A DNA stretch of 64,000 nt from a virus. Made by a program: the position numbers and the translations under genes. The stretch's first letter is position 1. Every line of letters starts with the position of its first letter. Below the pieces are notes generated by a model, which saw only the letters and a program-made list of their open reading frames with translations, was not told the DNA's origin and did not search any database. The DNA lies in the IMG/VR virus record IMGVR_UViG_3300013233_000167, positions 10,461 through 74,460 of that record; one strand, given 5' to 3'. Below are positions 4,415-63,453 of this stretch, piece after piece.

Positions 4415-4818
4415 GATGCAATAACCGGATCGAACGCAGACATGTGCGCAGCCGCGATGTCATACAAGCGCTCCACCACACGCTGAAAAATCAGCGCGCT
4501 GTTCCGGCCGCAGAAGTGAAGCTGATAATCGTCACCCTGCCCAACCGTAAGATCCATGCAGCCGTCCCACTTCAACGACCCATACATGAACACTTGCGCG
4601 TCGTCCAACCCGGTCGAGAAGGTCAACGGAGAGTCGGCCCCCTGTTGCGTGAACTGCACCGGACCCTTCCCGTTGACGGGACCTGCGACGATCTCCAATA
4701 TCACGTAATTCATCCAGCGCGTGCCGATGCAGCAGAACACGACGAACTCATCCTTCAAAGTCGCTTCATCCAACGGAGGAAACGCTCGCGGCATCTGGCT
4801 AGGCGTAAGATCTAACAT
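4411..4818 (-). CDS. hypothetical protein
   Basis: Start MLDLTP overlaps the thyX stop; protein-like composition. Confidence 0.65.
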   Translation of the reverse strand: MLDLTPSQMPRAFPPLDEATLKDEFVVFCCIGTRWMNYVILEIVAGPVNGKGPVQFTQQGADSPLTFSTGLDDAQVFMYGSLKWDGCMDLTVGQGDDYQLHFCGRNSALIFQRVVERLYDIAAAHMSAFDPVIAS

Positions 4819-5981
4819 CCCGCGACGACCTCCCCTATCCCATCGGTCGAGGGCACGAGATTGAATTCCGCGAAGTCCTCGACCCACTTCGTCGTCTTGA
4901 GGGCTCGAAGAACGTAGCCGTACAGCACGCGGATCTCAGCGTCGGCGTAAGGAGAGCAACGCATGGCGATCATGCGCTTCCACTGCGCCACGGACGCGGA
5001 AAAGATCAGCTCGGTGTGGAGCGCGTTGCCGAGGTAGCCGCGAGCTGCGCCGCGCGCTTGTTTGCGCGCGGTGTGCTTGTCGATGCCCTGCGCCTCGCAG
5101 GCCGCTTGCAGTTTGTATGCCGCGTCCCGATAGACCCAGCGCGCGTAACCCTCCGCCGCATGGGGTTCCTCCGAACCGTAGAAACCCACCTTACGCGGTC
5201 TCGGATCCTCTGAGCTGTCCGTACGCAAACGCTCAACGTCGTCGTTGTATCGCGTGGTCAACGGATGCTCCACCCACGGGCTGTCGCTCTCGTCCACATA
5301 CCGAGTGCTGCGTTGACTGACAGCCGTGCGAAACTTGTGACGCACTTGCTCGTGGCTCATGCCACGCGATCCTCCGAGCAACAGCGACACCCACGCCTGC
5401 TCCTGACTGACCGGGATTACATTCTCCCAGTACAGATTGGCCTGCGGTCCTACATCCAGATTCTCTGGCGCATCCACGATTTGCGGAGCGAGTATGTGGG
5501 CTTCTTTTCTAAGAATCCAAGGGAGCCACTTTTCGATGCGCGCATCGACTCCAATCTGCGGCGTCCAGTCATCCCACTCCACCACGGCACGCAAGTTACT
5601 CGTGATGTACACCTCGTCGATCTCAGGCAGATAATTCTCAATCCACACACCCGGACGATTCGCAAGAGCCACCACGAAATCCGACGAGCGAAGAAAATCA
5701 CCCTCGTCCACAACGTCGCAGTCATAGTTGAGATGTAGACAGATAGTAAAATTCGCGTGCTCCCACACGGAGCCGTGACCGACCTCCGCGATGTGCTTGT
5801 GATACGCGGCCGAGCTACGCCCCTTGCCGAGCGAGTCATAACAGACGCGCCCAGCAAGCTCGACGAGCCGCTCCAGCGTCGTGCCTTGAAGCTGGTCGTC
5901 CTTGGGGGTTCCCATGCGCGCGGGCGCGTGAGTCTCGTCGCCGTCGAAGACGACCTCTGCATAGATATTCTCGTCATACAT
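4812..5981 (-). CDS. thyX: flavin-dependent thymidylate synthase
   Basis: AGRVCYDS, GHGSVWEH, SHEQVRH...SQRSTRY, AARGYL and RCSPYADAEIR motifs. Confidence 0.92.
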   Translation of the reverse strand: MYDENIYAEVVFDGDETHAPARMGTPKDDQLQGTTLERLVELAGRVCYDSLGKGRSSAAYHKHIAEVGHGSVWEHANFTICLHLNYDCDVVDEGDFLRSSDFVVALANRPGVWIENYLPEIDEVYITSNLRAVVEWDDWTPQIGVDARIEKWLPWILRKEAHILAPQIVDAPENLDVGPQANLYWENVIPVSQEQAWVSLLLGGSRGMSHEQVRHKFRTAVSQRSTRYVDESDSPWVEHPLTTRYNDDVERLRTDSSEDPRPRKVGFYGSEEPHAAEGYARWVYRDAAYKLQAACEAQGIDKHTARKQARGAARGYLGNALHTELIFSASVAQWKRMIAMRCSPYADAEIRVLYGYVLRALKTTKWVEDFAEFNLVPSTDGIGEVVAGC

Positions 5982-7512: not shown

Positions 7513-8046
7513 TCAGTTCGCCTCGCGGATCATCGCCTTGTACTTGTCGTCCTTCGGCGTCGTATTCTGCAACACGGCGTCGGCGAACTGGTCGGCATTG
7601 AACTTCTCCCCGCGCTCTTCGGCGAGCTTCCTCGCCTGCTCGATGGCCTCGTCCTTCCACGCAGGCGTGCGCTTGCCCTTCTGCAAGTCGTAGTCCACGC
7701 GCAGCGGTCCTTCCTCGAACGAACCCCGAGCACGCATCCTCAGCGCGTTGGCGGCGAAGATCTTCTCCATGTCGCCCATCGCGCCCTTGGCGAACGCGGC
7801 GAACCGCGCGACCTCCATGTGCGTCTGCAATACCTCGCCGTCCTCTGGCAGTCCCGACAGCTCCTCGCGGAACGTATCGACCGCCTCCATGAGCGTCTCG
7901 GCTGCCGCTTGGATCGCGGACGGGTCGAGCAAGCTCCTGTTGGATTCTACGCGGATCACTTCCGCCGCTGCGGCCTTCGTCTTAGTCGCGGTCTTGCGCT
8001 TCGCTATCTTCTTCCGCGTCGCCGTCTTTTTCTTCGCCTGTGCCAT
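7513..8046 (-). CDS. hypothetical protein with Lys-rich N-terminus
   Basis: MAQAKKKTATRKK... start with SD GGAG; preceded by the conserved leader. Confidence 0.8.
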   Translation of the reverse strand: MAQAKKKTATRKKIAKRKTATKTKAAAAEVIRVESNRSLLDPSAIQAAAETLMEAVDTFREELSGLPEDGEVLQTHMEVARFAAFAKGAMGDMEKIFAANALRMRARGSFEEGPLRVDYDLQKGKRTPAWKDEAIEQARKLAEERGEKFNADQFADAVLQNTTPKDDKYKAMIREAN

Positions 8047-8056
8047 GCCTAGTCTC

Positions 8057-8157
8057 CGTTGTCTCACCCACGAGGGTATCTGGGTCCGGTCGTCAATCCC
8101 ACCGACAGAGTGCTGGTGGTTAGAAGTTGTATCGACTGTCGATCAGTCGTTTCTTTA
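8057..8157 (-). promoter_or_regulatory. sigma28-like promoter plus conserved 32-nt hairpin leader, copy 1
   Basis: TAAAG(8157-8153)-N16-GTCGATAC(8136-8129); CGGACCCAGA T ACCC TCGT GGGT GA GACAACG (8088-8057). Confidence 0.75.
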
Positions 8158-8352: not shown

Positions 8353-8695
8353 GTTGCTCTCCTGTTGTCGTCTGCGTGCGCGCGACTCCGGACCGTCTCC
8401 CGACCGCCAACCGGCGGGGCGCGAGTTGATGGGTAGTCGCTGGCTCATCGTAGTGGAAGGGGTAAGAGAACCCCCGATGCTTTTGGGCCTCCCGGCTCGC
8501 TCTATGCACTGAGTTCACCGACCGATTCCCACGCCCTTCGGAGGCTCTCCGTAAGGATACCCCATTTCGAGGAAAGATGAGGGGCCGAGTTGAAGAATCA
8601 TCGACCCACGGACTACCACCGACCGCTGGGGGATTGGGGAGGGCCAGTACGGCCAGTAGAGGGGGGTATGTGTCGTCTCCGCGCCCGAGCGAATA

Positions 8696-9580
8696 CTACC
8701 GCCCTTTTCGCTTCGGGGCGTTGTTTCGGCGCTTGATCGACAGCAATTTTTTCAGGTGTTGCTCGCGCGTCGGACCCTCTGCGAGCACACGCAGCGCCTC
8801 GTCCGACCCCACCACCCTGACGAGCAGTCGATGGCGGCAATTCGTCAGACAGACCGTGAGGCCGCTGCGAGGCGTCGTCGGCAGATTCTTCTTGTGGTAT
8901 GGATTATTGTCCACGAGGTACTGACACGACTCACACACGCGCTTGTCCTTCTTGCCCACCCATCTGAACACCGAGGTTGCAGGCAAACCCATGACGCGCG
9001 CGGAATCGTAGAAGCTCTCCAGCGCGTCGATGTACATTCCGGTCCGACGGTCGAGCGGCATCTTATAGTCCTGCTCCGTCACCGCCTTGACGAACTTGTT
9101 GAGGAAGCGCATCTCGTGCTTGATCGCGCTCTTGAGCCACTTCTCATCTCCAGCCGAGAACTCAATGGGGTCGTGCGGGTTGCGCCCCCGTATTCCCGCT
9201 GACCTCACTCCCGCCACGAATACATCACGCCATGCACGCTTCATCACGCGCGACGAGTCTTGCTGAAAGTCCGTGTTCCAGGTCTCGCCGCGATCGTGCG
9301 CCATCACGAGCGGAAGCATCTCGGCGAACGCACGCTTCTTGATGCGCTTGAGCGCCCGCTTCCCAACCGTCACGCCCTTCTTGCGCGCGTTGGCGAACTC
9401 CTGCGGGCGGAGAAAGGAGTCCATCGTCTTGTCCTTGTCGAAAAAAACGAGATCGACCTCCTTGGCCGCGCCGACGTACTTGCCCTCATCGAGCGGCCAC
9501 CCCGCTTCCTCCGCAATCGTGAACGACGGTAGAAAGATGAACAGGTCGTCGTACTGAACGAGATCTCGAACGTCGGTCAT
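8696..9580 (-). CDS. phage head morphogenesis (MuF/gp7-like) protein
   Basis: C-terminal W...DKRVCESC...PRSG..CLTNCRHRL Cys motif; two genes downstream of the portal; start MTDVRD at 9580. Confidence 0.6.
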   Translation of the reverse strand: MTDVRDLVQYDDLFIFLPSFTIAEEAGWPLDEGKYVGAAKEVDLVFFDKDKTMDSFLRPQEFANARKKGVTVGKRALKRIKKRAFAEMLPLVMAHDRGETWNTDFQQDSSRVMKRAWRDVFVAGVRSAGIRGRNPHDPIEFSAGDEKWLKSAIKHEMRFLNKFVKAVTEQDYKMPLDRRTGMYIDALESFYDSARVMGLPATSVFRWVGKKDKRVCESCQYLVDNNPYHKKNLPTTPRSGLTVCLTNCRHRLLVRVVGSDEALRVLAEGPTREQHLKKLLSIKRRNNAPKRKGR

Positions 9581-10023
9581 TCCACGTCGCCGAGCTGGCG
9601 GGCGGCTGCCTCCCGGATCTGCCTCGTGGTCGTACGCACGAGTGACTTGCCGTTGGGGTTCGACTTGTTCCTCCGTGCCGTCTGCAAGCTCCGCTTCCCC
9701 TTCGTATTGCACGGGGCCATGATCTTCACTTGATGGCGGAAGCCACGCGACGGCACGAACACAGGGATGCTGTACGGGAAGCCATCGTTGTAGCGGTTGC
9801 ACTTCTCCGCGCGCTGCTCCAGCCACGGTCCAATCTTCCCGAGACCTGGGATCAGGACCGGCTTCCCGACGCACACCTCGTCGGCGACGTTCTCGATCCA
9901 ATACGTCAGGAACTTGAGTCCCTGTTCGCTAGAGATGCACGCCGAGCCCGCCGCGTCGTCAATCGTGCGGACCAGCGTTTCACGTTCCTCGCCGCGTTTC
10001 AAGTAAGGTAAGCTAACTTTCAT
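9577..10023 (-). CDS. HU/IHF-like DNA-binding protein
   Basis: GKPVLIPGLGKI...PVFVPSRGFR resembles the HU core and arm. Confidence 0.6.
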   Translation of the reverse strand: MKVSLPYLKRGEERETLVRTIDDAAGSACISSEQGLKFLTYWIENVADEVCVGKPVLIPGLGKIGPWLEQRAEKCNRYNDGFPYSIPVFVPSRGFRHQVKIMAPCNTKGKRSLQTARRNKSNPNGKSLVRTTTRQIREAAARQLGDVE

Positions 10024-47081: not shown

Positions 47082-47639
47082 TTAGAACCACGATGGGAGA
47101 TCAGCCGTCTCCAATTCATGTTGGATAACGCGCGCCTCGGCTTGGACAGCATCCATGTAGCTGCCGTCTACGAGTGTCTGGAGGATGTCGTTCGCAACCT
47201 GCCGGGCCGCTTCCCGCCCGTCAACCACCACACAACCCTCAGGAGGACTCTCACGACGCGCCTTGCCCAAACCCGACACCACGTCGTCGAGTGCCTTCGC
47301 CAAAGTTGGCGCTTCGTTCCTGATCGTCTGAGCAGACACCGCGAACTTGTTTTCGTCACGGCTAGGATGGTTCGACAGCGTGCGTACGGTATTCCAGCCG
47401 TGGCCGTCGAACACCAGTACCTCCACAAAATACGGCTGTGGAAGTGCTTCCACGTACTCCGCTGGAGAGAGCTGGTCACTAAGTATCCGAGCTTGGAAAG
47501 TTCCTCGATGGAGCCCGATGCGCACGTCCACGAAGTAACTCGCGTCGTACGTGTAGTCTTCTGTGTTCTTCATACTCATAATTTCGACCAGCCGACTCCG
47601 GCGACTTGAGAGCCCTCGTGTATTTTTCAAGATGCTCAT
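47082..47639 (-). CDS. hypothetical protein
   Basis: SD GGAGG; coupled. Confidence 0.6.
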   Translation of the reverse strand: MSILKNTRGLSSRRSRLVEIMSMKNTEDYTYDASYFVDVRIGLHRGTFQARILSDQLSPAEYVEALPQPYFVEVLVFDGHGWNTVRTLSNHPSRDENKFAVSAQTIRNEAPTLAKALDDVVSGLGKARRESPPEGCVVVDGREAARQVANDILQTLVDGSYMDAVQAEARVIQHELETADLPSWF

Positions 47640-53178: not shown

Positions 53179-53555
53179 CACAGCACCTCCGTTGGATCGA
53201 GCGCGATGCGCTTGCACTTGCGGCACAGTTTGGCGTCAGGTGAGATCTCCGGGTCGGGTGCGCCGCACGCCGACGTTGACTGGATCTCGGCCTTGCACAA
53301 CGGCTGCGCGAAGCCCTCGCAGCTCCCGTAGTGGTACACCTGCCCGCCCCCGCGCAGGTGCACGAACTCACCGGGCGGAGCGGAGTAGACGGTCACGCGC
53401 GCATCGAGCACGTCGCGGGCCACGCCCTCGACCGGACGGTCGAACAGGTCCGCAAGGAGCAGCACGGAGATCAACCCCGAGACCACGCTCAGGTCCGTGC
53501 TCGCGTCTTCGTCGTTGAGCGCGATCCACTCGATTCCTTTTCGGTAACTCGCCAT
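53178..53555 (-). CDS. hypothetical protein with C-terminal Cys motif
   Basis: IEWIALNDE...LCRKC. Confidence 0.6.
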   Translation of the reverse strand: MASYRKGIEWIALNDEDASTDLSVVSGLISVLLLADLFDRPVEGVARDVLDARVTVYSAPPGEFVHLRGGGQVYHYGSCEGFAQPLCKAEIQSTSACGAPDPEISPDAKLCRKCKRIALDPTEVL

Positions 53556-53557
53556 GT

Positions 53558-53830
53558 TCAGCTCCAGTAGCCTCGCCTCTCGGCTTTCAGTTGCTCGTAC
53601 TCCCGCGCGTCAGACGGGCATCCCAGCTCCGTCCACTCGCGCACCATGTCTTCGGTCCCTTGGAACAGACTCGTCGCACCACGCACGACCTCGACGTAAT
53701 CGCCGAAGCCCAGAACCACCGACGCACCCTGCGTCTCGTAGAGAAAGCACGGCACGCAGACCCGGACCTTCCGGTCGTCGCTGAGGGCGTCGATCACGCC
53801 CTCGGCCTTCTTGCAGATGTGGCAGCTCAC
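53558..53830 (-). CDS. small zinc-finger protein
   Basis: CHIC...CVPC. Confidence 0.55.
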   Translation of the reverse strand: MSCHICKKAEGVIDALSDDRKVRVCVPCFLYETQGASVVLGFGDYVEVVRGATSLFQGTEDMVREWTELGCPSDAREYEQLKAERRGYWS

Positions 53831-54615
53831 GCGACCCTCTCGAACTCGTAGGAGCCGTCGGGCTGCCGGTGGCACTCGATAACCTCTTCGGCGGCAGCCT
53901 CGATTGCCTCGGCCGAGATCACGACCGAACCCTCAGCCGCGCGGGCGGCTGCGGCGGCGCGCTTGCCGTGCTTGAGCCCCAGGTACTTCGCGCACGTCGG
54001 GCCGTAGCCGAGCGCCTTGCTCACGTCCTTGGTCAGCTCCGCGTTGCAGCGGCAGCACACACCAGACACGCGGCCCTCGCGGGCGAGCGTCTCTTCGGTC
54101 GGGCTCGCGCTCAGCTCGCGCAGCGCGGCGACGACCTCAGCGGCGACGGGCTGGTAGCGGCGGCCTTGCATTTCGCCGGAGGCGAGGATGCGGCCGTGCC
54201 ACGTCCGATCCTCGTAGGCGCGGTCGTCACTCGTGACGGTGATCGAGCCGGGGTTCTTGGCTCCGTCGCCTGCGATCGAGAGGCGCAGTCCGCGCCAGTA
54301 GATCACGACGCGCGAGACCTGCTTGGCCTTGCCCGCGACGGCCATGCGCGTCAACAGGTCGTGGATGCCGGGGAAGGTGTGGGTCTCAGGCGCAGGTTGC
54401 GCGTCGCGCTTCTGCTGCTCGATCGCCATGTAGTGCATCCACCCGATCTGCTTGCCGGACAGACGCGCCATCGCGGTGTACTTGCGAGCGAGGTCTTGCG
54501 GGAACGAGCTGCGAAGACCGGCGCAGACCTTGGCGGCCCCGTCGTTGTCGAGCGTACTCGTGAAGGTAATGTCTTCACCCTTGCGGGTGATCGTGAAGGT
54601 GCGTTCTTGAGTCAT
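53827..54615 (-). CDS. DUF6011-like zinc-ribbon protein
   Basis: CCRC...LT...S...GYGPTCAK motif; headed by the conserved leader. Confidence 0.7.
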   Translation of the reverse strand: MTQERTFTITRKGEDITFTSTLDNDGAAKVCAGLRSSFPQDLARKYTAMARLSGKQIGWMHYMAIEQQKRDAQPAPETHTFPGIHDLLTRMAVAGKAKQVSRVVIYWRGLRLSIAGDGAKNPGSITVTSDDRAYEDRTWHGRILASGEMQGRRYQPVAAEVVAALRELSASPTEETLAREGRVSGVCCRCNAELTKDVSKALGYGPTCAKYLGLKHGKRAAAAARAAEGSVVISAEAIEAAAEEVIECHRQPDGSYEFERVA

Positions 54616-54618
54616 GGT

Positions 54619-54702
54619 CGTTGTCCGGGCCTTGCGGCCGTCTGGGTCCGAGGAAGAGAGGCTTACAACAACCCCTTCGTCTGAACACTACCCCGATCTT
54701 GA
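54619..54702 (-). promoter_or_regulatory. sigma28-like promoter plus conserved hairpin leader, copy 2
   Basis: TCAAG(54702-54698)-N16-GACGAAG; CGGACCCAGA C GGCC GCAA GGCC CG GACAACG (54650-54619). Confidence 0.75.
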
Positions 54703-55257
54703 GGGTGCAGTCGAATTTCTCTCCACTTCGTCCCGTGAGACCCGGACGCCCTTCGGGATGCGGGGGCCGTACAACGTGATCCACTGAGCGCCCTCCTGGT
54801 CACGCTCCTGGACCATCACGGCGCTCCCCCGGTGCATCCAGTCTCGTAGTGCCTCGGCGAAGCGCGACTCCTGGAGGGCTCCCTGTCGCGTCTCACGAAC
54901 GATGATGATGTTGCCGCTCTTTGAGCCACCCCCGGCCGCCACGTTGAACTCCGGGTAGCGGTCCACGTACGCGAGCCACCCGAGCCGGTCCGGCCGGTCG
55001 TCGCCCTTCGCACCCCACCCGTCGAGCCACGCGCAGCGGAAGCCCCGGCACCTGGAGGGGCGCGTCTCGTAGATCGCGCAGCCTGTCGCGCACTCGTGCT
55101 CGCAGGGCTCGCCAGCGAGCGTCGGGATCTCGGGGATCGCCAACGCGGTGCAGCACGCGGTACATCCGCCGCACGCGCGGGGCTTCGCCTTCTTGGCAGC
55201 CTCGCGCTCCTTGCGCTTCGCGCGCCGCAGCTCCTTTCGCCTACGTTCGTTTCCCAC
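54688..55257 (-). CDS. YkgJ-like cysteine-cluster protein
   Basis: CGGCTACC...C.H....C.IYETRP..C..F.C.W. Confidence 0.75.
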   Translation of the reverse strand: MGNERRRKELRRAKRKEREAAKKAKPRACGGCTACCTALAIPEIPTLAGEPCEHECATGCAIYETRPSRCRGFRCAWLDGWGAKGDDRPDRLGWLAYVDRYPEFNVAAGGGSKSGNIIIVRETRQGALQESRFAEALRDWMHRGSAVMVQERDQEGAQWITLYGPRIPKGVRVSRDEVERNSTAPSRSG

Positions 55258-55453
55258 TCAGGATCTCCTCGCGCTTGCGCTCCAGACCCGGAATCTTCGC
55301 GCGCATCCGCGCCGCGTTCGTCGCGTCGCCGTTGGCCTCGGCTCGACTGGCCTGCGCTTCGATCTCGTCCAGCACGTCATTCACGCGACCAGCCATTTCG
55401 CGGCGGTGCGCCATGATGAGTTCGCGCTCCTCGTCCGTCAGTTCTTCGGTCAT
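55241..55453 (-). CDS. small coiled-coil protein
   Basis: SD AGGAG. Confidence 0.6.
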   Translation of the reverse strand: MTEELTDEERELIMAHRREMAGRVNDVLDEIEAQASRAEANGDATNAARMRAKIPGLERKREEILSGKRT

Positions 55454-55503
55454 AGGTGTCTCCTGATTGGGGCAGAGTGTACTCGTTCCTGATTCTACGG
55501 CCG

Positions 55504-55548
55504 CTTCACTTCACTTCACTTCACTTCACTTCACTTCACTTCACTTCA
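55504..55548. repeat. pentanucleotide microsatellite (CTTCA)x9
   Basis: Nine perfect copies. Confidence 0.95.
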
Positions 55549-55863
55549 CTCGATCTTCCCTAGCAGTCGTTGTGCGACGGCCTCTACGTAAAGCCTTTCG
55601 AGAAACTCGTCTGCCGCAGCGGTGAACTCGCTTGGGTGCGCCTTGATGTTCACTCGCATCTTCGCCACGACGCGCGCCACCTCGCGGAGTGTGCGTCCGC
55701 GCAGCGTAGCGATATCGAGAATGAACTCCTCGCGGACATCGCGGAATGTCCGGTCCCCAGCGGGCGTAAGCAACAACAGATGCTCATCGTCGCACACGCT
55801 CACCATCGGTAAGTCCGGGAGCCTCACGATGGTCGAGCTGAATATCCGTTCGCCGCGCTTCAT
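55546..55863 (-). CDS. hypothetical protein
   Basis: ATG lies inside the 22-bp direct repeat. Confidence 0.55.
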   Translation of the reverse strand: MKRGERIFSSTIVRLPDLPMVSVCDDEHLLLLTPAGDRTFRDVREEFILDIATLRGRTLREVARVVAKMRVNIKAHPSEFTAAADEFLERLYVEAVAQRLLGKIE

Positions 55864-56228
55864 AGTGCTTCGAGCTTCTGGTTGTCGCGGAGTGTATCGA
55901 CTCAAAGTCTCTACCGAATAGATTCACGCAGGTCTCACGATTTTCCGCACCCAACCTCTATCACTACGATGGCGGTAGTAAGTCTCCCACACGCCGGGCT
56001 CGATCTCCCGCGAGCTTCGCACGTCCCACGTCTCGTCTGAGTGCATCGGCCCGGGCGATTGAGTCAGGGGCATGTTCTTGAGACCTTCGGAACCGTCCGC
56101 GTTCCAGATAGTTGCGTAGGCGCGGATACGACTCATATCAATGCCGGCAAGCACCTGCTCGGGCGTCTCCAGTCGAAAATCAATCTCGCCATGCTTGATG
56201 TTTCTGTTCATAGTGCTTCGAGCTTCTG
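55859..56228. repeat. 22-bp perfect direct repeats TTCATAGTGCTTCGAGCTTCTG (55859-55880 and 56207-56228)
   Basis: Read directly; they flank one gene. Confidence 0.9.
55924..56211 (-). CDS. hypothetical protein
   Basis: MNRNIKHG start inside the direct repeat. Confidence 0.55.
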   Translation of the reverse strand: MNRNIKHGEIDFRLETPEQVLAGIDMSRIRAYATIWNADGSEGLKNMPLTQSPGPMHSDETWDVRSSREIEPGVWETYYRHRSDRGWVRKIVRPA

Positions 56229-56942
56229 ACGCACGGCGTCGGTCACGATGGTCTGGTTGCGGCGGCACCCTTCTAGGTACAGCTCCAGGTCGAACGGGTA
56301 TCCCAGGTGCTCAATCACGTTGAAATGCGGTAAGCCAGTGTCTTGAAGGGGCTTCAACTTCTTGCGGACTCCCGACTCCACGACCGAGGGCTCGTCGAAC
56401 ATCAGCTCCCACTCCGTCTCGATGCCCCTGCCACGCTTGCGGATGATGAGGTCACAGCCTTCGTCCAGGTCAGTCACGTCGAGCGGCTCCTCCAGCCACT
56501 CCGTCTCCGGCGGCGGGTTCGCGCGAGCGAGTGCTTCCGCGAGCGTGATGTCTCCCGGCATCTCGTCTAGGCGTTCTACGATCAGCTCGGGGCGCGTTAT
56601 CGGATGTGTCGTGCCCAGCATCCGCTGGACGATCGGCCCGTAGGCCCGCTTCGGCAGATGCACGAGCTTGACCTCATCCTCCTGCGGTTCGTAGCACGGC
56701 GCGACGAACCATTCCCACGAGAGCACCGAATGCTCGCTCGGTCGGCGCATGTCCCAAAGGGGGTCGGGCGCACCGTACGTGCCGGGGCTCAGCGCCACCG
56801 GGTTGTCTCGGTCGAACTTGACGACGCCGCTCGCCTTCCTCCCGCGCAGCATGAACTGCCTCACGAGGAAGCCAGGTTCGCCGTAGTGCCACGGCAAAAG
56901 ACGGATGCGCTTGGACCCTTCGATTCTCATTATCTTCATCAC
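56208..56942 (-). CDS. second gp32-like SSB paralogue (no tails)
   Basis: RIRLLPWH, LPKRAY..IV and DVTDLDEGCDLIIRKRGRGIETEW align by eye with 29624..30982. Confidence 0.6.
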   Translation of the reverse strand: MMKIMRIEGSKRIRLLPWHYGEPGFLVRQFMLRGRKASGVVKFDRDNPVALSPGTYGAPDPLWDMRRPSEHSVLSWEWFVAPCYEPQEDEVKLVHLPKRAYGPIVQRMLGTTHPITRPELIVERLDEMPGDITLAEALARANPPPETEWLEEPLDVTDLDEGCDLIIRKRGRGIETEWELMFDEPSVVESGVRKKLKPLQDTGLPHFNVIEHLGYPFDLELYLEGCRRNQTIVTDAVRQKLEAL

Positions 56943-58468
56943 TTCACCACCTGAAAAGATGCCTTGCCTTCGTCGATGACCATATATGCCAACGCAACGC
57001 CGAGTTCTGTCTGCGACTCGTGGAACCTCTCATTGAGGTGGCTGCCGCTGTACTCGTGGCCTAGCTCGTGCACGAGCAGCTTGAGGTGCTTCGGCATGAG
57101 CACTGTCGCGTCGAGCGCGTCCTGGAACCACCGCTGCGTGAGCGAGCGCAGGTTTAGCAGGATCGTACGGTCCTCGTAGCACGCAGCAGGCGCGCGCCCG
57201 TGACTCGACTTCAACTGCTTGACGATGCGAACCTCGACGTGCGCGCCGATCAGCTTGGAGCCGAGGAACTCGAAGGCGTCGCACACCTCGATGCCACCGG
57301 GCGGGTACTGCTCGCGCGGGATCGTCACGTCTTCGCCGGTGTCACTGAACACCGCCGCGCTCGACGGCGTGACCTTCCCGGCGGGCCGGATCGTCTCGTG
57401 CTCACGCACGTTCTTCCAGACATCGGCCGGGAGCGAGCCGCCGTGCACGACCGCGTAGCCCTTGCTCATGGCGATCTGCGAGCCCTCCTTGTCGCTCGGG
57501 TCGTAGGCCACCCGCTTCTTGCCGAAGCGCAGGTCCATGATGTGCGTGAGCACCTCGGGTAGCGGCGCGGGGTTCGTGTGGCCGAGCGCCTCCGTGACCC
57601 ACGGCTCCTTCACGGCAGCCTCGTCTGTGATGCGCTCGTACCCGTGGTTCAGGACATGCGCGCGCAGGCGTCTCAGGAAGGCGGGCGTCACGTTGTCGCG
57701 GTCCACGTTGAGCGGGACCTTCTGGTGCACGTCGATGTCGAACGGTCCGCCGATCTCGACGACCGGGATCCCCAGCTCGAAGAGCCACCCGACGCACTCG
57801 GTCGCGTCCCACACCTCGACCTTGCCGATGCGCTGCGTCGGCCGAATTGTACCCTCGTCGTCGGACAGCTCGGTCTGGAGACGCGCCTCAAACGTGAGCC
57901 CGCACGGGATGATGCGCCGGAAGTGGTGCTCCATCGGATCGCCGCCGAAGCCGATGAACTCGATCGTCGTCGTGACGCCCTCGGGCACGTAGAGACTGTC
58001 GAGTCCGTAGTACGCAAGCTCCGCGTCTTCGCGCGTCATGTTCATCGTCGCAGAGATCGACGTGCCTCGTGCGCGTGACGCGCTCGAACGTCGCGTCGTC
58101 CCGTCGGATCGGAAGTTCAGAGTGCCGCCCGTGGAGCAGATCGACGCCTTAGTGCACAACGAAAGGAACAATTTTTCGCCGACGTTGAATCGTCCGCGCT
58201 GCCTTGCGTCGCTCTTCTTCTTCGAGGCCGCGAAAAGCACGCGCGCCTCTTCGAGATCGACGAAGCCGAGCGTCGAGTTGTCGTCACACCGCACCTCGAC
58301 CTTCGGTGAGTTCGGAACCGCCGTGACGGTCAACGTCACCTCGGTCACACCCTCCTCGTCCCATGCGTTCGAGATCAGCTCGAAGAATGGAGCAGCCGGG
58401 CCACGTCGCGCATACACCTGCGCGAGCCCCTCCTTGTCTACGCGAAACCAGTCGTTCGTTCTTGTCAT
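56939..58468 (-). CDS. GHKL (HATPase) ATPase with C-terminal HExxH motif
   Basis: ELISNAWDE, DDN..G, GRFNVGEK, GT; C-terminal LLVHELGHE. Confidence 0.8.
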   Translation of the reverse strand: MTRTNDWFRVDKEGLAQVYARRGPAAPFFELISNAWDEEGVTEVTLTVTAVPNSPKVEVRCDDNSTLGFVDLEEARVLFAASKKKSDARQRGRFNVGEKLFLSLCTKASICSTGGTLNFRSDGTTRRSSASRARGTSISATMNMTREDAELAYYGLDSLYVPEGVTTTIEFIGFGGDPMEHHFRRIIPCGLTFEARLQTELSDDEGTIRPTQRIGKVEVWDATECVGWLFELGIPVVEIGGPFDIDVHQKVPLNVDRDNVTPAFLRRLRAHVLNHGYERITDEAAVKEPWVTEALGHTNPAPLPEVLTHIMDLRFGKKRVAYDPSDKEGSQIAMSKGYAVVHGGSLPADVWKNVREHETIRPAGKVTPSSAAVFSDTGEDVTIPREQYPPGGIEVCDAFEFLGSKLIGAHVEVRIVKQLKSSHGRAPAACYEDRTILLNLRSLTQRWFQDALDATVLMPKHLKLLVHELGHEYSGSHLNERFHESQTELGVALAYMVIDEGKASFQVVK

Positions 58469-58477
58469 GTGTCTTTC

Positions 58478-58555
58478 CGTTGTCTTGCGCTTGCGCGCGT
58501 CTGGATCCGAATGCGGTCCACAGTCAGTATCGACAGTTCGCCCCCTTGGACTTGA
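58478..58555 (-). promoter_or_regulatory. sigma28-like promoter plus conserved hairpin leader, copy 3
   Basis: TCAAG(58555-58551)-N16-GTCGATAC; CGGATCCAGA C GCGC GCAA GCGC AA GACAACG (58509-58478). Confidence 0.75.
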
Positions 58556-58666
58556 GCCGGTCTGCCGCTTGTGCTCCGAAGCCTACCCCGAGAAAAGCCC
58601 ACAGGCACGCCTCACGGGCGTTTTTCTCCGTCACGCGGACCTTTTTGGTGAAATCAAGGTCCGCGC

Positions 58667-58756
58667 TCAAGTTCTCGGGGTAGGCTGCCGATACAGGAAG
58701 AGCGCGGGGAGGTCATCCCCGGCACGGACCCAGAAGCCCTCAAGGGCGGGACAACG
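58667..58756 (+). promoter_or_regulatory. sigma28-like promoter plus conserved hairpin leader, copy 4
   Basis: TCAAG-N15-GCCGATAC(58687-58694); CGGACCCAGA A GCCC TCAA GGGC GG GACAACG (58725-58756). Confidence 0.75.
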
Positions 58757-58770
58757 GAAAGACAAAGACC

Positions 58771-59817
58771 ATGACTTCAACGCTTCAACTCCGACCGACT
58801 CAGCTCGCCGAACTTCTCTCAGCCGCGATCCCTGCGAAACTTCCCGTTCTCGTGACCGGCGCACCCGGCATCGGCAAGTCCGATGTCGTTGCCCAAGCTG
58901 CCGCCGCCGCCGGTGCCGACATGATCTTGTCGCACCCCGTCGTCGCCGACCCGACCGATGCGAAGGGTCTCCCGTGGGCAACCGAGGGCGCGGAGGAAGC
59001 GACCTTCCTCCCCTTCGGTGAAATGGCGCAGGCGCTCAAGGCAACGAAGCCTGCCGTCTGGTTCCTCGATGACCTCGGCCAAGCAAGTAAGGCTGTGCAA
59101 GCATCGTTCATGCAGCTCTTGCTCGCTCGTCGCGTCAACGGACACAAGCTGCCCGACTGCGTGACGTTCATGGCGGCCACCAACCGCCGCACTGATCGCG
59201 CCGGTGTCTCCGGGATCCTGGAGCCGGTCAAGAGTCGCTTCACCACGATCGTCGAGCTGGAGCCGAACCTCGACGACTGGTCGCAGTGGGCGCTCGACAA
59301 CGACGTGCCGGTCGAGTTGATCGCCTTCCTGCGCTTCCGCGCTGACCTGCTGAACGACTTCAAGCCGTCGGCTGACCTGACCAACAGCCCGAGCCCCCGT
59401 ACGTGGGCGAACGTCGGCAAGCTCCTCAAGCTCGGCCTCAGCTCCGACCTGGAGTACACGGCGATCGCCGGTGCGGTCGGCGAAGGCGCTGCCGCCGAAC
59501 TCATGGGCTTCCTTCGCCTGTACCGCGAGCTGCCCAACATCGACGGGATCCTGCTCGACCCGGACAGCGAGCCGCTGCCCGATCAGCCCGCCGCGATGTA
59601 CGCGACCGTGACGGGCCTCGGCGCTCGGGTCACCGAAGAGAACGGCTCGCGCGTCCTGCGCTACGCCGAGAGGCTCATGGAGAGCGGTCAGGGCGAGTTC
59701 GCCGTCGTCCTGGTACGAGACGCCATCCGCAAGGTCCCGGCCGTCAAGGAGACCCGGGAGTTCGTCCGGTTCGCCTCTGGCGAGTTCTCGACCCTCCTGA
59801 CCGGGGGCGCGGCCTGA
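58771..59817 (+). CDS. MoxR-like AAA+ ATPase
   Basis: GAPGIGKS, FLDDLGQA, AATNR, V.SRF and PSPRTW motifs. Confidence 0.88.
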   Translation: MTSTLQLRPTQLAELLSAAIPAKLPVLVTGAPGIGKSDVVAQAAAAAGADMILSHPVVADPTDAKGLPWATEGAEEATFLPFGEMAQALKATKPAVWFLDDLGQASKAVQASFMQLLLARRVNGHKLPDCVTFMAATNRRTDRAGVSGILEPVKSRFTTIVELEPNLDDWSQWALDNDVPVELIAFLRFRADLLNDFKPSADLTNSPSPRTWANVGKLLKLGLSSDLEYTAIAGAVGEGAAAELMGFLRLYRELPNIDGILLDPDSEPLPDQPAAMYATVTGLGARVTEENGSRVLRYAERLMESGQGEFAVVLVRDAIRKVPAVKETREFVRFASGEFSTLLTGGAA

Positions 59818-59839
59818 TCTGAGATTTCTCCGGGAGCCC

Positions 59840-59918
59840 TCAAGGTTCCCGGCCCACCTGGACGAAGAAGACCCTGTAAACGACACCGGACCCAGACGCC
59901 CGCGAGGGCTCGACAACG
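59840..59918 (+). promoter_or_regulatory. sigma28-like promoter plus conserved hairpin leader, copy 5
   Basis: TCAAG-N16-GACGAAG(59861-59867); CGGACCCAGA C GCCC GCGA GGGC TC GACAACG (59887-59918). Confidence 0.75.
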
Positions 59919-59927
59919 GAGACCAGA

Positions 59928-60857
59928 ATGAACGCACTGAACATGACCGCCACCCCGCCCGCCGATCAAGGCATCCACTCCCGCGCCATGCTGGTGCGCC
60001 TCGTGGTCACCGGCTGGAACGGCCGACGCTTCGACCGCAAAGTCACCGACGAGACCAACGCGCAGCACGCCGCGTCCAAGGACGCCGGACGCTACAACAA
60101 GGCTCTGCTCGGCGGCAAGAAGAACGCGCCCTCGCACGCCGATGCGATCGCCGCTGGTGGAGCCGCTCGTCGTACCTTCTACAAGCAGACGCTCGCTTGG
60201 TCCGACGAGGGCTGGCGACTGCTCCCGACCGCCAACTACGAGAAGTTCGTCGATGCGATGCGCAAGTCGCGCGGTGCGTTCGAGGAATCGGTCGAGCAGT
60301 TCCTCGCCGACTACCCGACCTACCGCGAGCAGGCCCGCGCTCTGCTGAACGGCATGTACCGCGAAGACGACTACCCGAGCGTTGACGCCCTTCGCAGCAA
60401 GTTCAGCTACTCGATCGAGTTCAGCCCGGTTCCGAGCGCGGGCGACTTCCGCCTCGACCTGCCGAGCGATCAGCTCACCGAGATCGAGCGCAACACTTCG
60501 GCGCGCGTCGAGCAGGCCACCAAGGACGCGATGCGCGACGCTTGGTCGCGTCTGCAAGAGTCGGTCGAGAAGGTGCGCGAGCGGTTGACCGGCGTGGACG
60601 CCGAAGGCAAGCGCAAGGGAAAGCCCAAGACCTTCCACGACAGCCTAATCGACAACGCGGCGAATCTGGCCGACGCGCTGACCCGCCTGAACATCACGAA
60701 CGACCCCGACCTCGAAGCGATGCGCCAGCGAGTCGCCGACGAGCTGGCCGATCTGGAGCCCAAGACGCTCCGCGAGGATCCCAAGGCACGCGCCAAGGCC
60801 GCCAAGAGCGCGACCGACATCCTGTCCGCCATGAAGGGCCTGTACGGTGGGGAGTAA
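59928..60857 (+). CDS. helical phage protein (DUF3150-like as recalled), partner of the AAA ATPase
   Basis: AMLVRL...W...FD, TL.WSD.G.RLLP, DYP...L..KF and LN.TNDP.L patterns. Confidence 0.65.
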   Translation: MNALNMTATPPADQGIHSRAMLVRLVVTGWNGRRFDRKVTDETNAQHAASKDAGRYNKALLGGKKNAPSHADAIAAGGAARRTFYKQTLAWSDEGWRLLPTANYEKFVDAMRKSRGAFEESVEQFLADYPTYREQARALLNGMYREDDYPSVDALRSKFSYSIEFSPVPSAGDFRLDLPSDQLTEIERNTSARVEQATKDAMRDAWSRLQESVEKVRERLTGVDAEGKRKGKPKTFHDSLIDNAANLADALTRLNITNDPDLEAMRQRVADELADLEPKTLREDPKARAKAAKSATDILSAMKGLYGGE

Positions 60858-61041
60858 CGGCGACCTACGGATGGCCGTGCTGCTTGCGCTGATCGAGCAG
60901 CACGGTCCTTTGCCGTGCATCCACGTTGCGCGGGTGCTGCGGCACATCGAAGCGCACGCAGGGGGTGTCACGGTCCTTCCGAGGAGCGCTGTTGATATCT
61001 CAGCAAGAACTTTCCCGGAATCCGAGAAGGGCTCCAGTTAG
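60847..61041 (+). CDS. small hypothetical protein
   Basis: Fills the gap in the operon; weak support. Confidence 0.35.
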   Translation: MGSNGDLRMAVLLALIEQHGPLPCIHVARVLRHIEAHAGGVTVLPRSAVDISARTFPESEKGSS

Positions 61042-61068
61042 AAGGCCCTCGGGGTCGAGGAGTATGGT

Positions 61069-62325
61069 ATGGAAGCTCACATCAAGAAGATAATGGCCGC
61101 CCGCATGGCTCTCGTTTTGGACCAGCCCTTCTTTGGGGTGCTGGCGCTTCGCCTGCGCATCCAGCCGGACCCGAGCTGCAAGACCGCGTGGGTTGACGGC
61201 CGCACGATGGGCTACAACCCGAGCTTCGTCGAGGGCCTGTCCCATCCGCAGCTCGTCGGTCTCGTCGCTCACGAGGTCATGCACTGCGCGGCCGGTCACC
61301 CGTGGCGACGCGACGCCCGCGACCAAAAGAAATGGAACGTCGCGGCCGACCACGCGATCAACCCGATCCTGATCGACTCCGGCTTCAAGCTCCCCGAGGG
61401 CGCGCTGCTCGCCGACGAGAACCGGGGCAAGTCAGCCGAGTGGATCTACGATCGCCTGCCCCAGCCGCAAGAGCCCGAGCAGGGTGAGCCCGAGCAAGGC
61501 GACGGCGAGCAAGGCTCCAGCGAGTCGAGCGACCAACCGGACGACGACACGCAAGACGACGCCGACGAGAACGCCGAAGACGACGAAGGCGACGAGACCC
61601 AAGGCGCGGGCCAGGACGACGATGACGACGCCGAGCCCGATCAGCCCGGCGAAGTGCGTGACGCGCCTCCCGACACGACCGAAGACGGCACGACCGAAAG
61701 CGATTGGAAAGCCGCCGTTCAGCAAGCCGCGAACGCCGCCGCCGCGCAAGGCAAACTCCCCGGCGCGTTGAAGAGGTTCGCCGACGACGCCGCCGAGACG
61801 AAGGTAGACTGGCGCTCGGCGCTGCTCCGCTTCGTCCAGGAGACGAAGGCCAGCGACTACACCTGGAAGCAGCCGAATCGCCGCTACGCTGCTCGCGGGC
61901 TGTATCTGCCCTCGTTGCACAGCGAAGAGATGGGACCGATGGTCATCGCCATCGACACGAGCGGCTCGCTCGACGCCGTGATGCTCAGCCAGTTCAACGC
62001 CGAGGTCAGCGCGATCGTTGACCAGATGAACCCCACCCGGGTCCACGTCATGTACTGCGACTCGGAAGTCCGCCGGACCGACACGTTCGAGCGAGACGAC
62101 GAGATCGAGTTCGACGCGGTTGGCGGTGGCGGCACCAAGTTCGGCCCGGTCTTCGATGCGATCGACGAGCTGGACGAGGTTCCGGCGTGCGTCGTGTACT
62201 TGACCGACCTGGAGCCCTGGGGCGAGAACGGCTGGCCCGCGCAAGAGCCCGAAGTTCCGACCTTGTGGGCCGCGACGAAGCGCCACGAAGTTCCGTTCGG
62301 CGAAGTCCTCCTGGTGAACGAATGA
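61069..62325 (+). CDS. HExxH metallopeptidase-like domain plus vWA domain protein (DUF2201-like)
   Basis: PFFG, AHEVMH, WN.A.D..IN, acidic linker, MIDAS IDTSGS, GGGGT.F and YLTD motifs. Confidence 0.88.
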   Translation: MEAHIKKIMAARMALVLDQPFFGVLALRLRIQPDPSCKTAWVDGRTMGYNPSFVEGLSHPQLVGLVAHEVMHCAAGHPWRRDARDQKKWNVAADHAINPILIDSGFKLPEGALLADENRGKSAEWIYDRLPQPQEPEQGEPEQGDGEQGSSESSDQPDDDTQDDADENAEDDEGDETQGAGQDDDDDAEPDQPGEVRDAPPDTTEDGTTESDWKAAVQQAANAAAAQGKLPGALKRFADDAAETKVDWRSALLRFVQETKASDYTWKQPNRRYAARGLYLPSLHSEEMGPMVIAIDTSGSLDAVMLSQFNAEVSAIVDQMNPTRVHVMYCDSEVRRTDTFERDDEIEFDAVGGGGTKFGPVFDAIDELDEVPACVVYLTDLEPWGENGWPAQEPEVPTLWAATKRHEVPFGEVLLVNE

Positions 62326-63263
62326 AGCCCAAGAAACCGATGTCCGCGTCCGCCCGCGTCATGCAGGCCGGACGCGGCTTGTCTGTAAGTCAATTCTCCC
62401 GCATGGCGAACGATATGCACGGCGGGATCAGCTACACGGGCTGCTCAAAGGGCAGCATCGTGAAGGCGCTGCTGAACGGCGAGCTAGGTCAGAAGCCGTA
62501 CACGGCCAACGAGGTCATCGCAGAGATCAAGCGCGTGAAGGACGAGAGCAACGCCGCGCAGGTCGAGCAAGCGACGCTCACGCGCGCCCGTCGTCGCAGG
62601 TGCGACTACGAAGACCTGCCGCGCCACGAATCGCACGGGCTCATCGGGATCAGTCGCGTACAAGGCATCGCCAATCTGCACGGCAGTCCGATCAAGTCGC
62701 ACGGTTTTATCGAGCTGCACATCCACGAAGGTCATCGCAAGGCAGGGCTCGGCGGAGAGCACTACCACGACGGCAAGATCATCGCGTGCGTGCGCCTTAG
62801 CGAGACGCAGTTCGCGCAGATGATTACGACGCCCAACATGGGGTGCGGGGTGCCGTGCACGCTCACCCACTACCGCGACGGCGACCGACTCAAGCAGTGT
62901 GAGGACCCGCCCGCCGAAGAGAGCGTCAGCTCGATCACGCGCCGCCAGTTCAAGGAGGACGTGCAAGACTCGATGGCGACCATGAAGGCCACGCGCCGCA
63001 GGATCGAAAAGAAGCTCAGCGAAGGCAAGCTCTCGAAGAAGCTGCAAGACGAGTTGCGCAGCGAGATCTTCGAGCTGTTGCGAATATTCGAGGACAGCGC
63101 GCCGTTCGTGATGGAGAGGTTCGAGGAGAACGTGCAGGCCACCGTCGCCACGGCCAAAACCGAGTTGGCGAGTTACGTGTCGCTCGTCGCTCAGAAGAGA
63201 GGACTCGAAGCGTTGCGCGAAGACACAGAGTTTCAACTGCTAATCGAAGAAGACGATGGATAA
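62322..63263 (+). CDS. hypothetical protein
   Basis: ATGA-coupled; H.S.G.I..SR..G...L.GS...V.LS..QFA.......G.GVPCTL pattern. Confidence 0.7.
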   Translation: MKPKKPMSASARVMQAGRGLSVSQFSRMANDMHGGISYTGCSKGSIVKALLNGELGQKPYTANEVIAEIKRVKDESNAAQVEQATLTRARRRRCDYEDLPRHESHGLIGISRVQGIANLHGSPIKSHGFIELHIHEGHRKAGLGGEHYHDGKIIACVRLSETQFAQMITTPNMGCGVPCTLTHYRDGDRLKQCEDPPAEESVSSITRRQFKEDVQDSMATMKATRRRIEKKLSEGKLSKKLQDELRSEIFELLRIFEDSAPFVMERFEENVQATVATAKTELASYVSLVAQKRGLEALREDTEFQLLIEEDDG

Positions 63264-63453
63264 CACACACACACCAAAGAAACTCTCGGAAGAACTACCT
63301 CTGAGCCTTCAAGCGTACGAGCGCGCGTGCGTCGAGCGCGCCATACGTGAGCATCCAAAGAGTACCGATGCCGCGCGCGCACTCTGCATCGGAAAGAGCA
63401 CGCTGTATCGAATGCTAAAGAGACACGCGATCAAAAGAGACCATCAGAAATGA
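63256..63453 (+). CDS. Fis-family helix-turn-helix protein
   Basis: YER..V.RA.......AARAL.IGKSTLYR.LK. Confidence 0.75.
   Translation: MDNTHTPKKLSEELPLSLQAYERACVERAIREHPKSTDAARALCIGKSTLYRMLKRHAIKRDHQK

Follow-up and report, generated by a model that had tools for sequence, protein, structure and literature searches.

Within the window, that is, the whole 64,000-nt stretch of viral DNA that was analyzed, a pattern scan with the consensus CGGAYCCAGA-N-stem4-loop4-stem4-NN-GACAACG found exactly five copies of a short motif, each close to the start of a gene. Copy 3 (58478..58509, minus strand; stem GCGC/GCGC, loop GCAA, T at box position 5) forms the leftward arm of a divergent region and precedes the ATG at 58468 of a gene whose 509-aa product has no assigned function. 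On the plus strand, copy 4 (58725..58756; stem GCCC/GGGC, loop TCAA) stands before the ATG at 58771 of a MoxR-like AAA ATPase gene and copy 5 (59887..59918; stem GCCC/GGGC, loop GCGA) before the ATG at 59928 of a gene for a 309-aa product, which is followed by a DUF2201 metallopeptidase/vWA gene. The other two copies are on the minus strand: copy 1 (8057..8088; stem ACCC/GGGT, loop TCGT) leads a gene for a 177-aa Lys-rich protein (7513-8046, ATG at 8046), and copy 2 (54619..54650; stem GGCC/GGCC, loop GCAA) leads a gene for a 262-aa DUF6011 protein (ATG at 54615). Positions, stems and loops had all been given by an earlier, sequence-only reading and were found as described, including the three GNRA loops (GCAA, GCAA and GCGA), the orientation of the motif with its gene (5/5 copies) and its end 3–14 nt before the ATG, the measured gaps being 10, 3 (acc), 9, 14 and 9 nt for copies 1 to 5.

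Besides the five exact matches, the scan of the window returned one unrelated match with three mismatches; shuffles predict 0.56 matches when up to three mismatches are allowed. No sixth copy was detected by pattern scan across the entire 74,460-bp record. A covariance model run with filters off scored copies 1 to 5 at 44.6, 53.9, 50.8, 50.3 and 54.6 bits respectively, and everything else at 13.8 bits or less. The whole window was then compared with Rfam 15, with 0 matches at gathering thresholds; at E≤10, the 58400-60000 region gave four far-sub-threshold matches, none of them on a motif copy, which agrees with the initial impression that no described family was involved. The motif is a real, structured and uncatalogued leader element.

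Thirteen further copies were identified on five related metagenome contigs (L011, L012, L014, L018 and L021). Together with those of the window they make a set of 18 copies from six closely related contigs, many of them orthologous. The flanks CGGANCCAGA and GACAACG are present in 18/18 copies and both boxes are invariant save for box position 5; when the relatives are compared, the boxes are unchanged while the surrounding intergenic regions have diverged, indels included. The stems, by contrast with the boxes, vary in a paired manner. In the L011 orthologue of copy 1 the stem is GCCC/GGGC, an A-T pair having been replaced in compensatory fashion by G-C, and the counterparts of copy 2 ahead of homologous genes carry GCCC/GGGC in L012 and GGGC/GCCC in L018. 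Over the whole set, 68/68 stem cells are Watson-Crick and 10 cells are changed on both sides; the covariation score was reached by 0/500 shuffles, and pairing falls to 50–54% when the partner is slid by one column. The perfect pairing and conserved flanks first noted in five copies are thus borne out in 18.

The hairpin has a stem of only 4 bp. Its loop measures 3–5 nt (GCAA, GCGA, GTGA, TCAA, TCGT, TCAC, GAG, CAA, TAC and ACGAA across the set, GNRA in 3/5 window copies), its distances to the two boxes are constant at 1 nt and 2 nt in the 18 copies, and its predicted energy is -6 to -10 kcal/mol. No larger conserved fold of the whole leader was found, the 4-bp hairpin alone being recurrent, and units with a longer promoter-to-motif distance contain an extra upstream hairpin. 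No trans RNA complementary to both boxes was found in the 74 kb. Compensatory changes and fixed junctions despite loops of 3–5 nt would fit a folded single strand, most simply a leader RNA. Since neither G-U pairs nor one-sided stem changes occur among the 18 copies, an RNA hairpin and a single-stranded DNA hairpin look alike in these data.

Each of the five copies is preceded by a promoter-like element, T[CA]AAG-N17-18-CGA[AT][AG], of which the record contains 10 occurrences against 1.1 expected; the suggestion that every copy lies downstream of the same promoter type is therefore confirmed. On the minus strand this element is TAAAG-N18-CGATA for copy 1 (8130..8157), TCAAG-N18-CGAAG for copy 2 (54675..54702) and TCAAG-N18-CGATA for copy 3 (58528..58555), ending 41, 24 and 18 nt upstream of the motif; on the plus strand it is TCAAG-N17-CGATA for copy 4 (58667..58693) and TCAAG-N18-CGAAG for copy 5 (59840..59867), ending 31 and 19 nt upstream. 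A TGTAA is seen between copy 5 and its promoter, at the expected transcript start. In the 18-copy set, a sigma28-like promoter match ends 18–41 nt upstream of the motif in 17 cases. The sigma28 (FliA/WhiG) consensus has the geometry TAAA-N15-GCCGATAA; the spacer found here is 1–2 nt longer than in this consensus, and the -10 element is often CGAAGA. A family search for sigma70 region 2 revealed no sigma gene in the record (~53% complete), and a sigma70 consensus scan of 53500-61200 gave one promoter-like site, at no motif. The same promoter type is also found without the motif, at 47582-47609 (minus strand) in the window, at three sites in L021 and at two sites in the relative L029, whose AAA ATPase gene keeps this promoter type and has no motif. 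Of the structured cis-acting RNA proposed earlier, what stands is a real, structured, gene-oriented element with no Rfam match; its transcription we infer from the promoter-like sequences.

In 18/18 copies, the next ATG in the orientation of the motif lies 2–14 nt downstream (merely 2 nt in the L014 orthologue of copy 4), and the distance to the promoter ranges over 18–41 nt. All 18 motif-led genes start with ATG, compared with about half of the starts in a crude background. The motif-to-ATG spacing is bimodal, 2–4 nt or 8–14 nt, and the two classes differ in their ribosome-binding core. Long-form copies use the final G of the 3' box as the first letter of a GGAG or GGAA, with the AUG 8–14 nt past the box. 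Short-form copies have an NGGA core to which the base preceding the 3' box contributes, an AUG 2–4 nt past the box and a start region that is G-poor and C/A-rich. Copy 2, a short form, had been said to have no Shine-Dalgarno sequence: GGAG is indeed missing, but a CGGA core is found 8 nt before the AUG, by way of the base preceding the 3' box.

A G immediately precedes the 3' box in 8/8 short-form and 2/10 long-form copies (Fisher p = 0.001), the second codon is ACN in 12/18 motif-led genes (background 10%) and these genes are G-poor at +4 to +33 (0.20 vs 0.285, p = 0.0007), statistics that overstate the number of independent events as they come from six closely related contigs with many orthologous copies. 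Conservation extends into the first codons, ACCATGACTCAR being found before four unrelated proteins. The GACAAC hexamer alone precedes the starts at 8352 (GTG), 27133 (parB), 30982 (ssb) and 55863, as already reported, and also the one at 44865. As read from the sequences, this geometry favours a role at translation initiation.

Searching 185,579 species genomes gave no true copy (6 pattern matches, all without the hairpin and attributable to chance), so the motif is probably not a host signal. It is absent from 80 more distant IMG/VR relatives, reached by way of their AAA ATPase (45–74% identity; the closest relatives, P0002-P0008, are at 75–84%), and from L006 (62% identity). Pattern scans of IMG/VR brought up L005 as the sole true relative; a looser scan returned 76 stretches, none above 29 bits besides L005, and, as a control, the stem was present in 0/61 distinct chance two-box matches elsewhere in IMG/VR. 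Megablast of 54000-62000 against GenBank phages gave no match, and tblastn of the 509-aa protein gave one uncultured phage at 35% identity. The motif occurs in a narrow clade only. "Phage-wide", the term used at first, was too strong for an element with five copies in 74 kb, with a promoter type that also occurs motif-free and with such a distribution. Within the clade, the DUF6011 gene with its promoter and motif is at a different place and on a different strand in the window and L018 compared with L012; at the position corresponding to DUF6011 in the window, L012 has another gene behind the cassette, and elsewhere in L012 a motif and the 509-aa gene are separated by an additional gene of 58 aa.

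The reading that we hold to be the best, at somewhat less than an even chance, is that of a transcribed leader RNA, abutting or containing the ribosome-binding site, on which a trans-acting factor would dock to control translation initiation. The module would be a clade-specific leader segment of ~32 nt, in which two single-stranded boxes, CGGANCCAGA and GACAACG, flank a G+C-rich hairpin of 4 bp at fixed distances of 1 nt and 2 nt, the stem sequence and the 3–5 nt loop being free to vary. Judging from the promoter-like sequences, transcription would probably proceed from the sigma28-like promoter ending 18–41 nt upstream, and the module would abut or contain the ribosome-binding site of the first gene. 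A factor, probably phage-encoded, would bind the module and set translation initiation on these mRNAs. The module would then be a translational operator or enhancer, according to the direction of the effect, common to one set of transcription units.

As for the factor, family searches of the ~53% complete 74-kb record found neither NusG (PF02357), nor CsrA, nor cold-shock domains, and only a weak HTH within a 1049-aa protein. Just upstream of copy 2, 54688-55257 (minus strand) is a real gene encoding a 189-aa protein with an Arg/Lys-rich N-terminal helix and no homology to N. CsrA-type GGA sites were considered and rejected, as the short-form copies carry no further GGA downstream and such sites would not account for the remaining invariant bases. 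We know of no convincing complementarity between the boxes and conserved stretches of 16S rRNA. The stem-loop of copy 2 presumably shares ~12–13 nt with the helix 27 hairpin of 16S rRNA, a likeness taken as a coincidence given that the other copies do not share these nucleotides.

Instead of the ribosome, the target could be RNA polymerase. The motif would then act in the nascent leader, as a site for processive antitermination or for the control of elongation (nut, put or LoaP-like) on which a factor loads to carry the polymerase past terminators. We consider this unlikely, in spite of the promoter-proximal position of the motif, which heads transcription units and invariably follows one promoter type, and of the 189-aa protein with its Arg-rich N-terminal helix encoded beside copy 2. 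The lambdoid nut sites, to which N binds together with the Nus factors, consist of a boxA (CGCUCUU(U)A-type) and a boxB hairpin whose loop adopts a GNRA-type fold, is of constant size and is specific in sequence. The motif resembles them as a linear box combined with a short hairpin, about half of the loops being GNRA, in promoter-proximal phage leaders. It differs from them by the lack of a boxA-like sequence, by two boxes instead of one, by a loop of 3–5 nt of any sequence and by its position 2–14 nt from the AUG. The analogy with nut drawn by the sequence-only reading therefore fails on membership: going by its sequence features the motif is not a nut site, having no boxA, a loop conserved neither in sequence nor in length, and an anchor at start codons (18/18) rather than merely at operon heads, with a promoter distance that varies. 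In L021, moreover, three promoter+motif+gene units follow one another in tandem, the promoter of the third overlapping the end of the gene before it. That each of these short units has its own copy argues against antitermination and suits a function exercised gene by gene rather than operon by operon. With regard to the RfaH ops and LoaP type, no PF02357 match, and hence no NusG-like gene, was present in the 74-kb record, itself incomplete.

A site acting at the DNA level is likewise improbable in our view. It could be a hairpin promoter, read by a phage polymerase or factor that has escaped recognition and giving leaderless or short-leader mRNAs, an ops-like hairpin of the non-template strand, or an operator. 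The spacing of 2–4 or 8–14 nt is what one would expect of a fixed start that gives leaderless transcripts and transcripts with a short Shine-Dalgarno leader, and the conservation into the first codons and the strictly Watson-Crick stem, without G-U, also suit this explanation. The promoters of the N4 virion RNA polymerase are likewise small hairpins with conserved flanks, at a fixed short distance upstream of the would-be RNA start; they are clustered at one genome end, unlike the motif copies, which are scattered across the genome and follow a promoter of another type. Neither the record nor five complete relatives (121–164 kb) contained a single-subunit polymerase (PF00940), in a search whose control was also matchless and which very divergent members could escape; nor was a giant virion polymerase, a T7-type RNA polymerase or a sigma70 region 2 detected in the same sequences. 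A polymerase gene could be missing from the record, only 53% complete. The separate promoter-like element beside 17/18 copies, kept before the L029 AAA ATPase gene that has no motif, speaks against the motif being itself a promoter, and a double-stranded DNA operator requires neither a covarying palindrome nor tolerance of a 14–16 bp box spacing.

The box-hairpin-box might also recruit the ribosome by itself or with the help of a factor, replacing the normal Shine-Dalgarno sequence and enabling efficient use of an AUG just 2–4 nt downstream in a G-poor region, and it would perhaps be read by the Arg-rich 54688-55257 product. This would be a new dedicated translation-initiation signal for phage mRNAs of one promoter type, and we regard it as quite unlikely. 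Equally doubtful is an mRNA processing or stability signal, one that would either be recognised by an endoribonuclease, of host or phage origin, that trims the leader, or act as a protective fold governing mRNA half-life. The location in the leader, the invariant single-stranded boxes around a small clamp hairpin and the extra upstream hairpin of the units with a longer promoter-to-motif distance are compatible with it; on the other side, a hairpin of this size falls well short of an RNase III substrate, a stabiliser should sit at the extreme 5' end and could do without 17 invariant bases on its flanks, and the tie between spacing class and ribosome-binding core points to the ribosome. Lastly, a PeSL-type recombination cassette with little regulatory role, its repeated promoter and leader providing homology for gene shuffling, would explain the relocated and strand-switched DUF6011 unit and the gene differences of L012 and can be compatible with a translational leader, but as the main function it is very improbable, since homology alone would preserve neither compensatory stem changes nor fixed boxes amid a drifting stem and loop, and the conserved unit is only 32 nt.

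Whatever its mode of action, the motif is a small and unusually clean case of start-linked phage signals, with 17 fixed bases and a 4-bp compensatory clamp; its two natural spacing classes each assemble the ribosome-binding core in a different way. It offers clear predictions and could help to show how a phage marks chosen mRNAs for common translational control. It might provide a portable regulatory part for high-G+C hosts, with a relevance limited by its narrow distribution.

Among known systems, phage translational operators include the T4 RegA sites, the T4 gene 32 and gene 43 operators and the coat-protein hairpins of RNA phages. RegA sites are AU-rich, unstructured, overlap the AUG and are common to several phage mRNAs, whose translation is set by the binding of a single protein; coat-protein hairpins are recognised through specific loop and bulge bases. 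The motif would share with these operators a cis site at or beside the ribosome-binding site, if it acts as RNA, and differs from RegA and coat-protein sites in that its specific bases sit in the flanks. In the PeSL of T4-type phages, the hairpin is a transcription terminator associated with a sigma70-like promoter (PMC2839356, PMC4122927). PeSL and the motif both form repeated promoter and hairpin cassettes before many small genes of no known function and mark gene-content differences among relatives. Unlike in PeSL, the hairpin of the motif has no U-tract, is downstream of the promoter, is flanked by boxes and abuts a start codon; no T-run follows the 4-bp stem and no sigma70-like site is found at the motif.

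The closest described class is that of the SAS/ESAS of Cluster K mycobacteriophages, described in 2011 (PMC3203893). The SAS is a 13-mer, GGGATAGGAGCCC, which includes the Shine-Dalgarno core and is located 3–7 nt before start codons, in 11–19 copies per genome spread within operons; the ESAS repeats of 17 bp show no covariation, and their authors favour DNA binding (PMC3203893). According to a 2025 survey of 188 genomes, a role of these elements in transcription or translation needs experimental verification (PMC12699233). The motif is not a SAS by sequence: allowing up to two mismatches, the 13-mer has only two matches in the 74 kb, both with two mismatches and neither corresponding to the motif. 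It also differs from ESAS by a 4-bp stem that covaries perfectly, and from SAS by its five copies, solely behind one promoter type. As in this class, the motif copies are co-oriented with their genes (18/18) and lie 2–14 nt before an ATG. Both are clade-specific asymmetric repeats placed a few nucleotides before starts, with a preference for ATG, and both are absent from hosts. Both are also two-tiered, in that a short box is found either alone (the lone GACAAC at ≥5 starts) or together with an inverted repeat upstream of it, and translation initiation is the process in which each has been proposed to act.

The five copies of the leader motif (5' box CGGAYCCAGA, one variable base, a hairpin with a 4-bp stem, two further bases and 3' box GACAACG) lie at 8057-8088(-), 54619-54650(-), 58478-58509(-), 58725-58756(+) and 59887-59918(+). 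They head genes for a 177-aa Lys-rich protein, a DUF6011 protein, a 509-aa protein, a MoxR-like AAA ATPase and a 309-aa protein, respectively. Re-reading of region 58300-60100 and of three other sites reproduced exactly the five copies described in the sequence-only reading. The pattern CGGAYCCAGA-N15-GACAACG matched the window exactly five times, and one unrelated site matched it with three mismatches (0.56 in shuffles). A covariance model and genome scan had been proposed as a check; the model, built from 14 copies and run without filters, scored the five sites at 44.6-54.6 bits and detected no degenerate copies, the next score being at most 13.8 bits. The record (74,460 bp, with the window at 10461-74460; CheckV completeness ~53%, G+C 57-66%) encodes a portal, a DNA polymerase, helicases, a UvsX/RecA-like protein and a methyltransferase, and no further copy was found in its first 10 kb.

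By pattern scanning, true copies turned up solely on a single IMG/VR contig and a few metagenome contigs. After the covariance model the set comprised 18 copies on six contigs, namely five in the window and, on related metagenome contigs, one in L011, five in L012, three in L014, one in L018 and three in L021. True copies scored at least 38.5 bits, whereas the 61 distinct chance matches from a relaxed IMG/VR scan (two boxes 13-18 nt apart) never exceeded 29 bits and never had the 4-bp stem in the proper position. In a collection of 185,579 species genomes, six box matches were obtained, none of them with the hairpin. Because it was not found outside these few related contigs, the motif is an innovation of a narrow clade. 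Homologues of the AAA ATPase behind copy 4 number thousands (one lies on a 2.7-kb contig binned as Thermoleophilia), and the motif was absent from 80 IMG/VR loci encoding this protein at 45-74% identity. L029, the nearest relative lacking the motif (74% identity), has the same promoter type before its AAA ATPase gene and a different leader. Sigma28-like promoters are retained at 9932-10003 and 12338-12430 of L029, where each leader has an ordinary Shine-Dalgarno sequence along with a different hairpin rich in G+C.

Both boxes are invariant in all 18 copies save box position 5 (C, T or A). The stem takes the forms ACCC/GGGT, GGCC/GGCC, GCGC/GCGC, GCCC/GGGC and GGGC/GCCC, with Watson-Crick pairing in 68/68 stem cells. 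Two-sided changes occur at three of the four stem pairs (10 cells) and one-sided changes at none; the observed pairing score was reached in 0 of 500 shuffles, and sliding the partner by one column lowered pairing to 50-54%. Compensatory differences also separate copies at homologous genes (copy 1 versus L011, copy 2 versus L012 and L018). Hairpin energies are predicted at -6 to -10 kcal/mol; beyond the 4-bp hairpin, the leader showed no larger conserved fold. The loop measures 3, 4 or 5 nt without sequence conservation, yet 1 nt always separates the 5' box from the stem and 2 nt always separate the stem from the 3' box. These fixed junctions despite loop-length variation are the strongest argument that the motif would act as a folded single strand. 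Duplex DNA is disfavoured, because the boxes would then stand 14-16 bp apart and the palindrome would serve no purpose.

An element T[CA]AAG (or TTCAGG)-N17-18-CGA[AT][AG] ends 18-41 nt upstream of the motif in 17 of the 18 copies; the L011 copy is the exception, its closest site of this kind lying at a distance of 163 nt. Its strict form occurs 10 times in the record (1.1 expected), and its spacer is 1-2 nt longer than in the sigma28 consensus. Where the promoter-to-motif distance is shortest, TGTAA stands at the expected transcript start. Some promoters of this type have no motif behind them (window 47582-47609(-), three L021 sites and two L029 sites); the motif is therefore optional, a module that only part of these units carry. 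At 47582-47609(-), the sixth sigma28-like match, the ATG follows the -10-like element by a few nt, and the leader of this unit may be very short or missing. Neither sigma70 region 2 nor a T7-type polymerase was found in the record or in five complete relatives (121-164 kb), so the promoters are likely read by the host polymerase.

A second recurring element, TCTCGGGGTAGG(C/T), was observed near sigma28-like promoters at ~58580-58593(-), 58673-58686(+) and 54687-54695(-), and also in L012, L014, L018 and L021. It lies within the spacer or 0-27 nt upstream, and its GGGTAG resembles a sigmaB/F-type -10; the element may represent another class of promoter or a site where a protein binds. At the centre of the divergent region, between the back-to-back promoters of copies 3 and 4, window 58600-58660 holds the block CGCGGACCTTTTTGG, most of which is conserved in L014 and part of it in L012, together with a terminator-like hairpin and T-run at 58607-58621(+).

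All 18 copies are followed, in the motif's direction, by an ATG start codon 2-14 nt downstream. The phage's other genes have ordinary GGAG/GAGG sites; the motif-led genes fall into two spacing classes. In the long form (n=10) the last G of the 3' box opens GGAG or GGAA, with the AUG 8-14 nt beyond the box. In the short form (n=8) the AUG follows the box by 2-4 nt and GGAG is lacking; the variable base before the box is always G, placing an NGGA core 8-9 nt before the AUG (8/8 versus 2/10 in the long form, Fisher p = 0.001, with copies partly orthologous). Conservation extends past the start codon, ACCATGACTCAR being common to the genes of four unrelated motif-led proteins. Among the partly orthologous copies, which inflates these statistics, the second codon is ACN in 12 of 18 genes (10% in a crude background) and positions +4 to +33 are G-poor (0.20 versus 0.285, p = 0.0007). 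Thr-rich N-termini (MTQ, MTN, MTS and the like) were seen in the window, L012, L014, L018 and L021. Even allowing for orthology, the start-context features all point to the initiation region. The claim that GACAAC alone precedes other starts held at no fewer than five probable ones (8352, 27133, 30982, 44865 and 55863): an ATG-only scan placed 4 of 39 non-motif occurrences before starts (~0.5 expected by estimate), and the GTG at 8352 was read directly, outside that scan.

In phage translational operators, a factor bound at the ribosome-binding site governs 30S entry. By analogy, we tentatively propose that the motif may be a transcribed leader module whose two fixed single-stranded boxes would be held by a small clamp hairpin against the ribosome-binding site; with a factor bound there, 30S entry would be either blocked in both spacing classes or assisted. 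In L021, three promoter-motif-gene units stand in tandem, the third promoter overlapping the end of the second gene, an arrangement more in keeping with a signal for each gene than with one for each operon. Antitermination through the motif and a hairpin promoter or other signal at the DNA level are both unlikely, to a like degree, and a role in RNA processing or stability is slightly more so. Promoter-motif cassettes move with genes: the DUF6011 gene, its promoter and motif occupy 53827-54702(-) in the window and 8620-9533(+), another place and the other strand, in L012, where different or extra genes follow two cassettes. The cassettes mark points of differing gene content, and a purely recombinational role is on its own very unlikely. 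At 3946-4162(-) in L012, moreover, an additional gene for a 58-aa zinc-ribbon protein separates a motif copy from the homologue of the 509-aa gene.

Since cellular genomes lack the motif, a factor setting ribosome entry would more likely be encoded by the phage than by its host. A 189-aa protein is encoded at 54688-55257(-), directly upstream of the copy 2 promoter. It opens with a helix rich in Arg and Lys (RRRKELRRAKRKEREAAK), after which comes a Cys cluster (PF03692 matched weakly, E = 2.1), and its L018 homologue shares 78% identity. Leaving aside the basic tail at the N-terminus of the DNA polymerase, no other real gene of the record encodes an Arg-rich segment of this kind. As a candidate reader of the hairpin, the 189-aa protein is only a lead. 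Elsewhere, 63256-63453(+), in the rightward operon, encodes a 65-aa protein with weak HTH matches including Fis-type HTH_8, which may be a small regulator that binds DNA. A 389-aa protein encoded in the operon behind copy 1 (4812-5981(-)) matches phage thymidylate synthase families (phrog_85, E = 2e-23), so the stretch after the portal gene is not purely a structural module.

Nut sites, PeSL cassettes and N4-type promoters were compared with the motif, which by its features belongs to none of the three; for the N4 type this rests on the polymerase searches of the ~53% complete record and the five complete relatives. No Rfam family matches it either, and the novelty supposed in the sequence-only reading stands. 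The closest described class is the SAS/ESAS of Cluster K mycobacteriophages (PMC3203893; surveyed in PMC12699233). Like these, the motif is start-linked, has one orientation, prefers ATG, is absent from hosts and is two-tiered. Unlike them it has a different sequence and, in contrast to ESAS, a stem that covaries; the motif itself is new.
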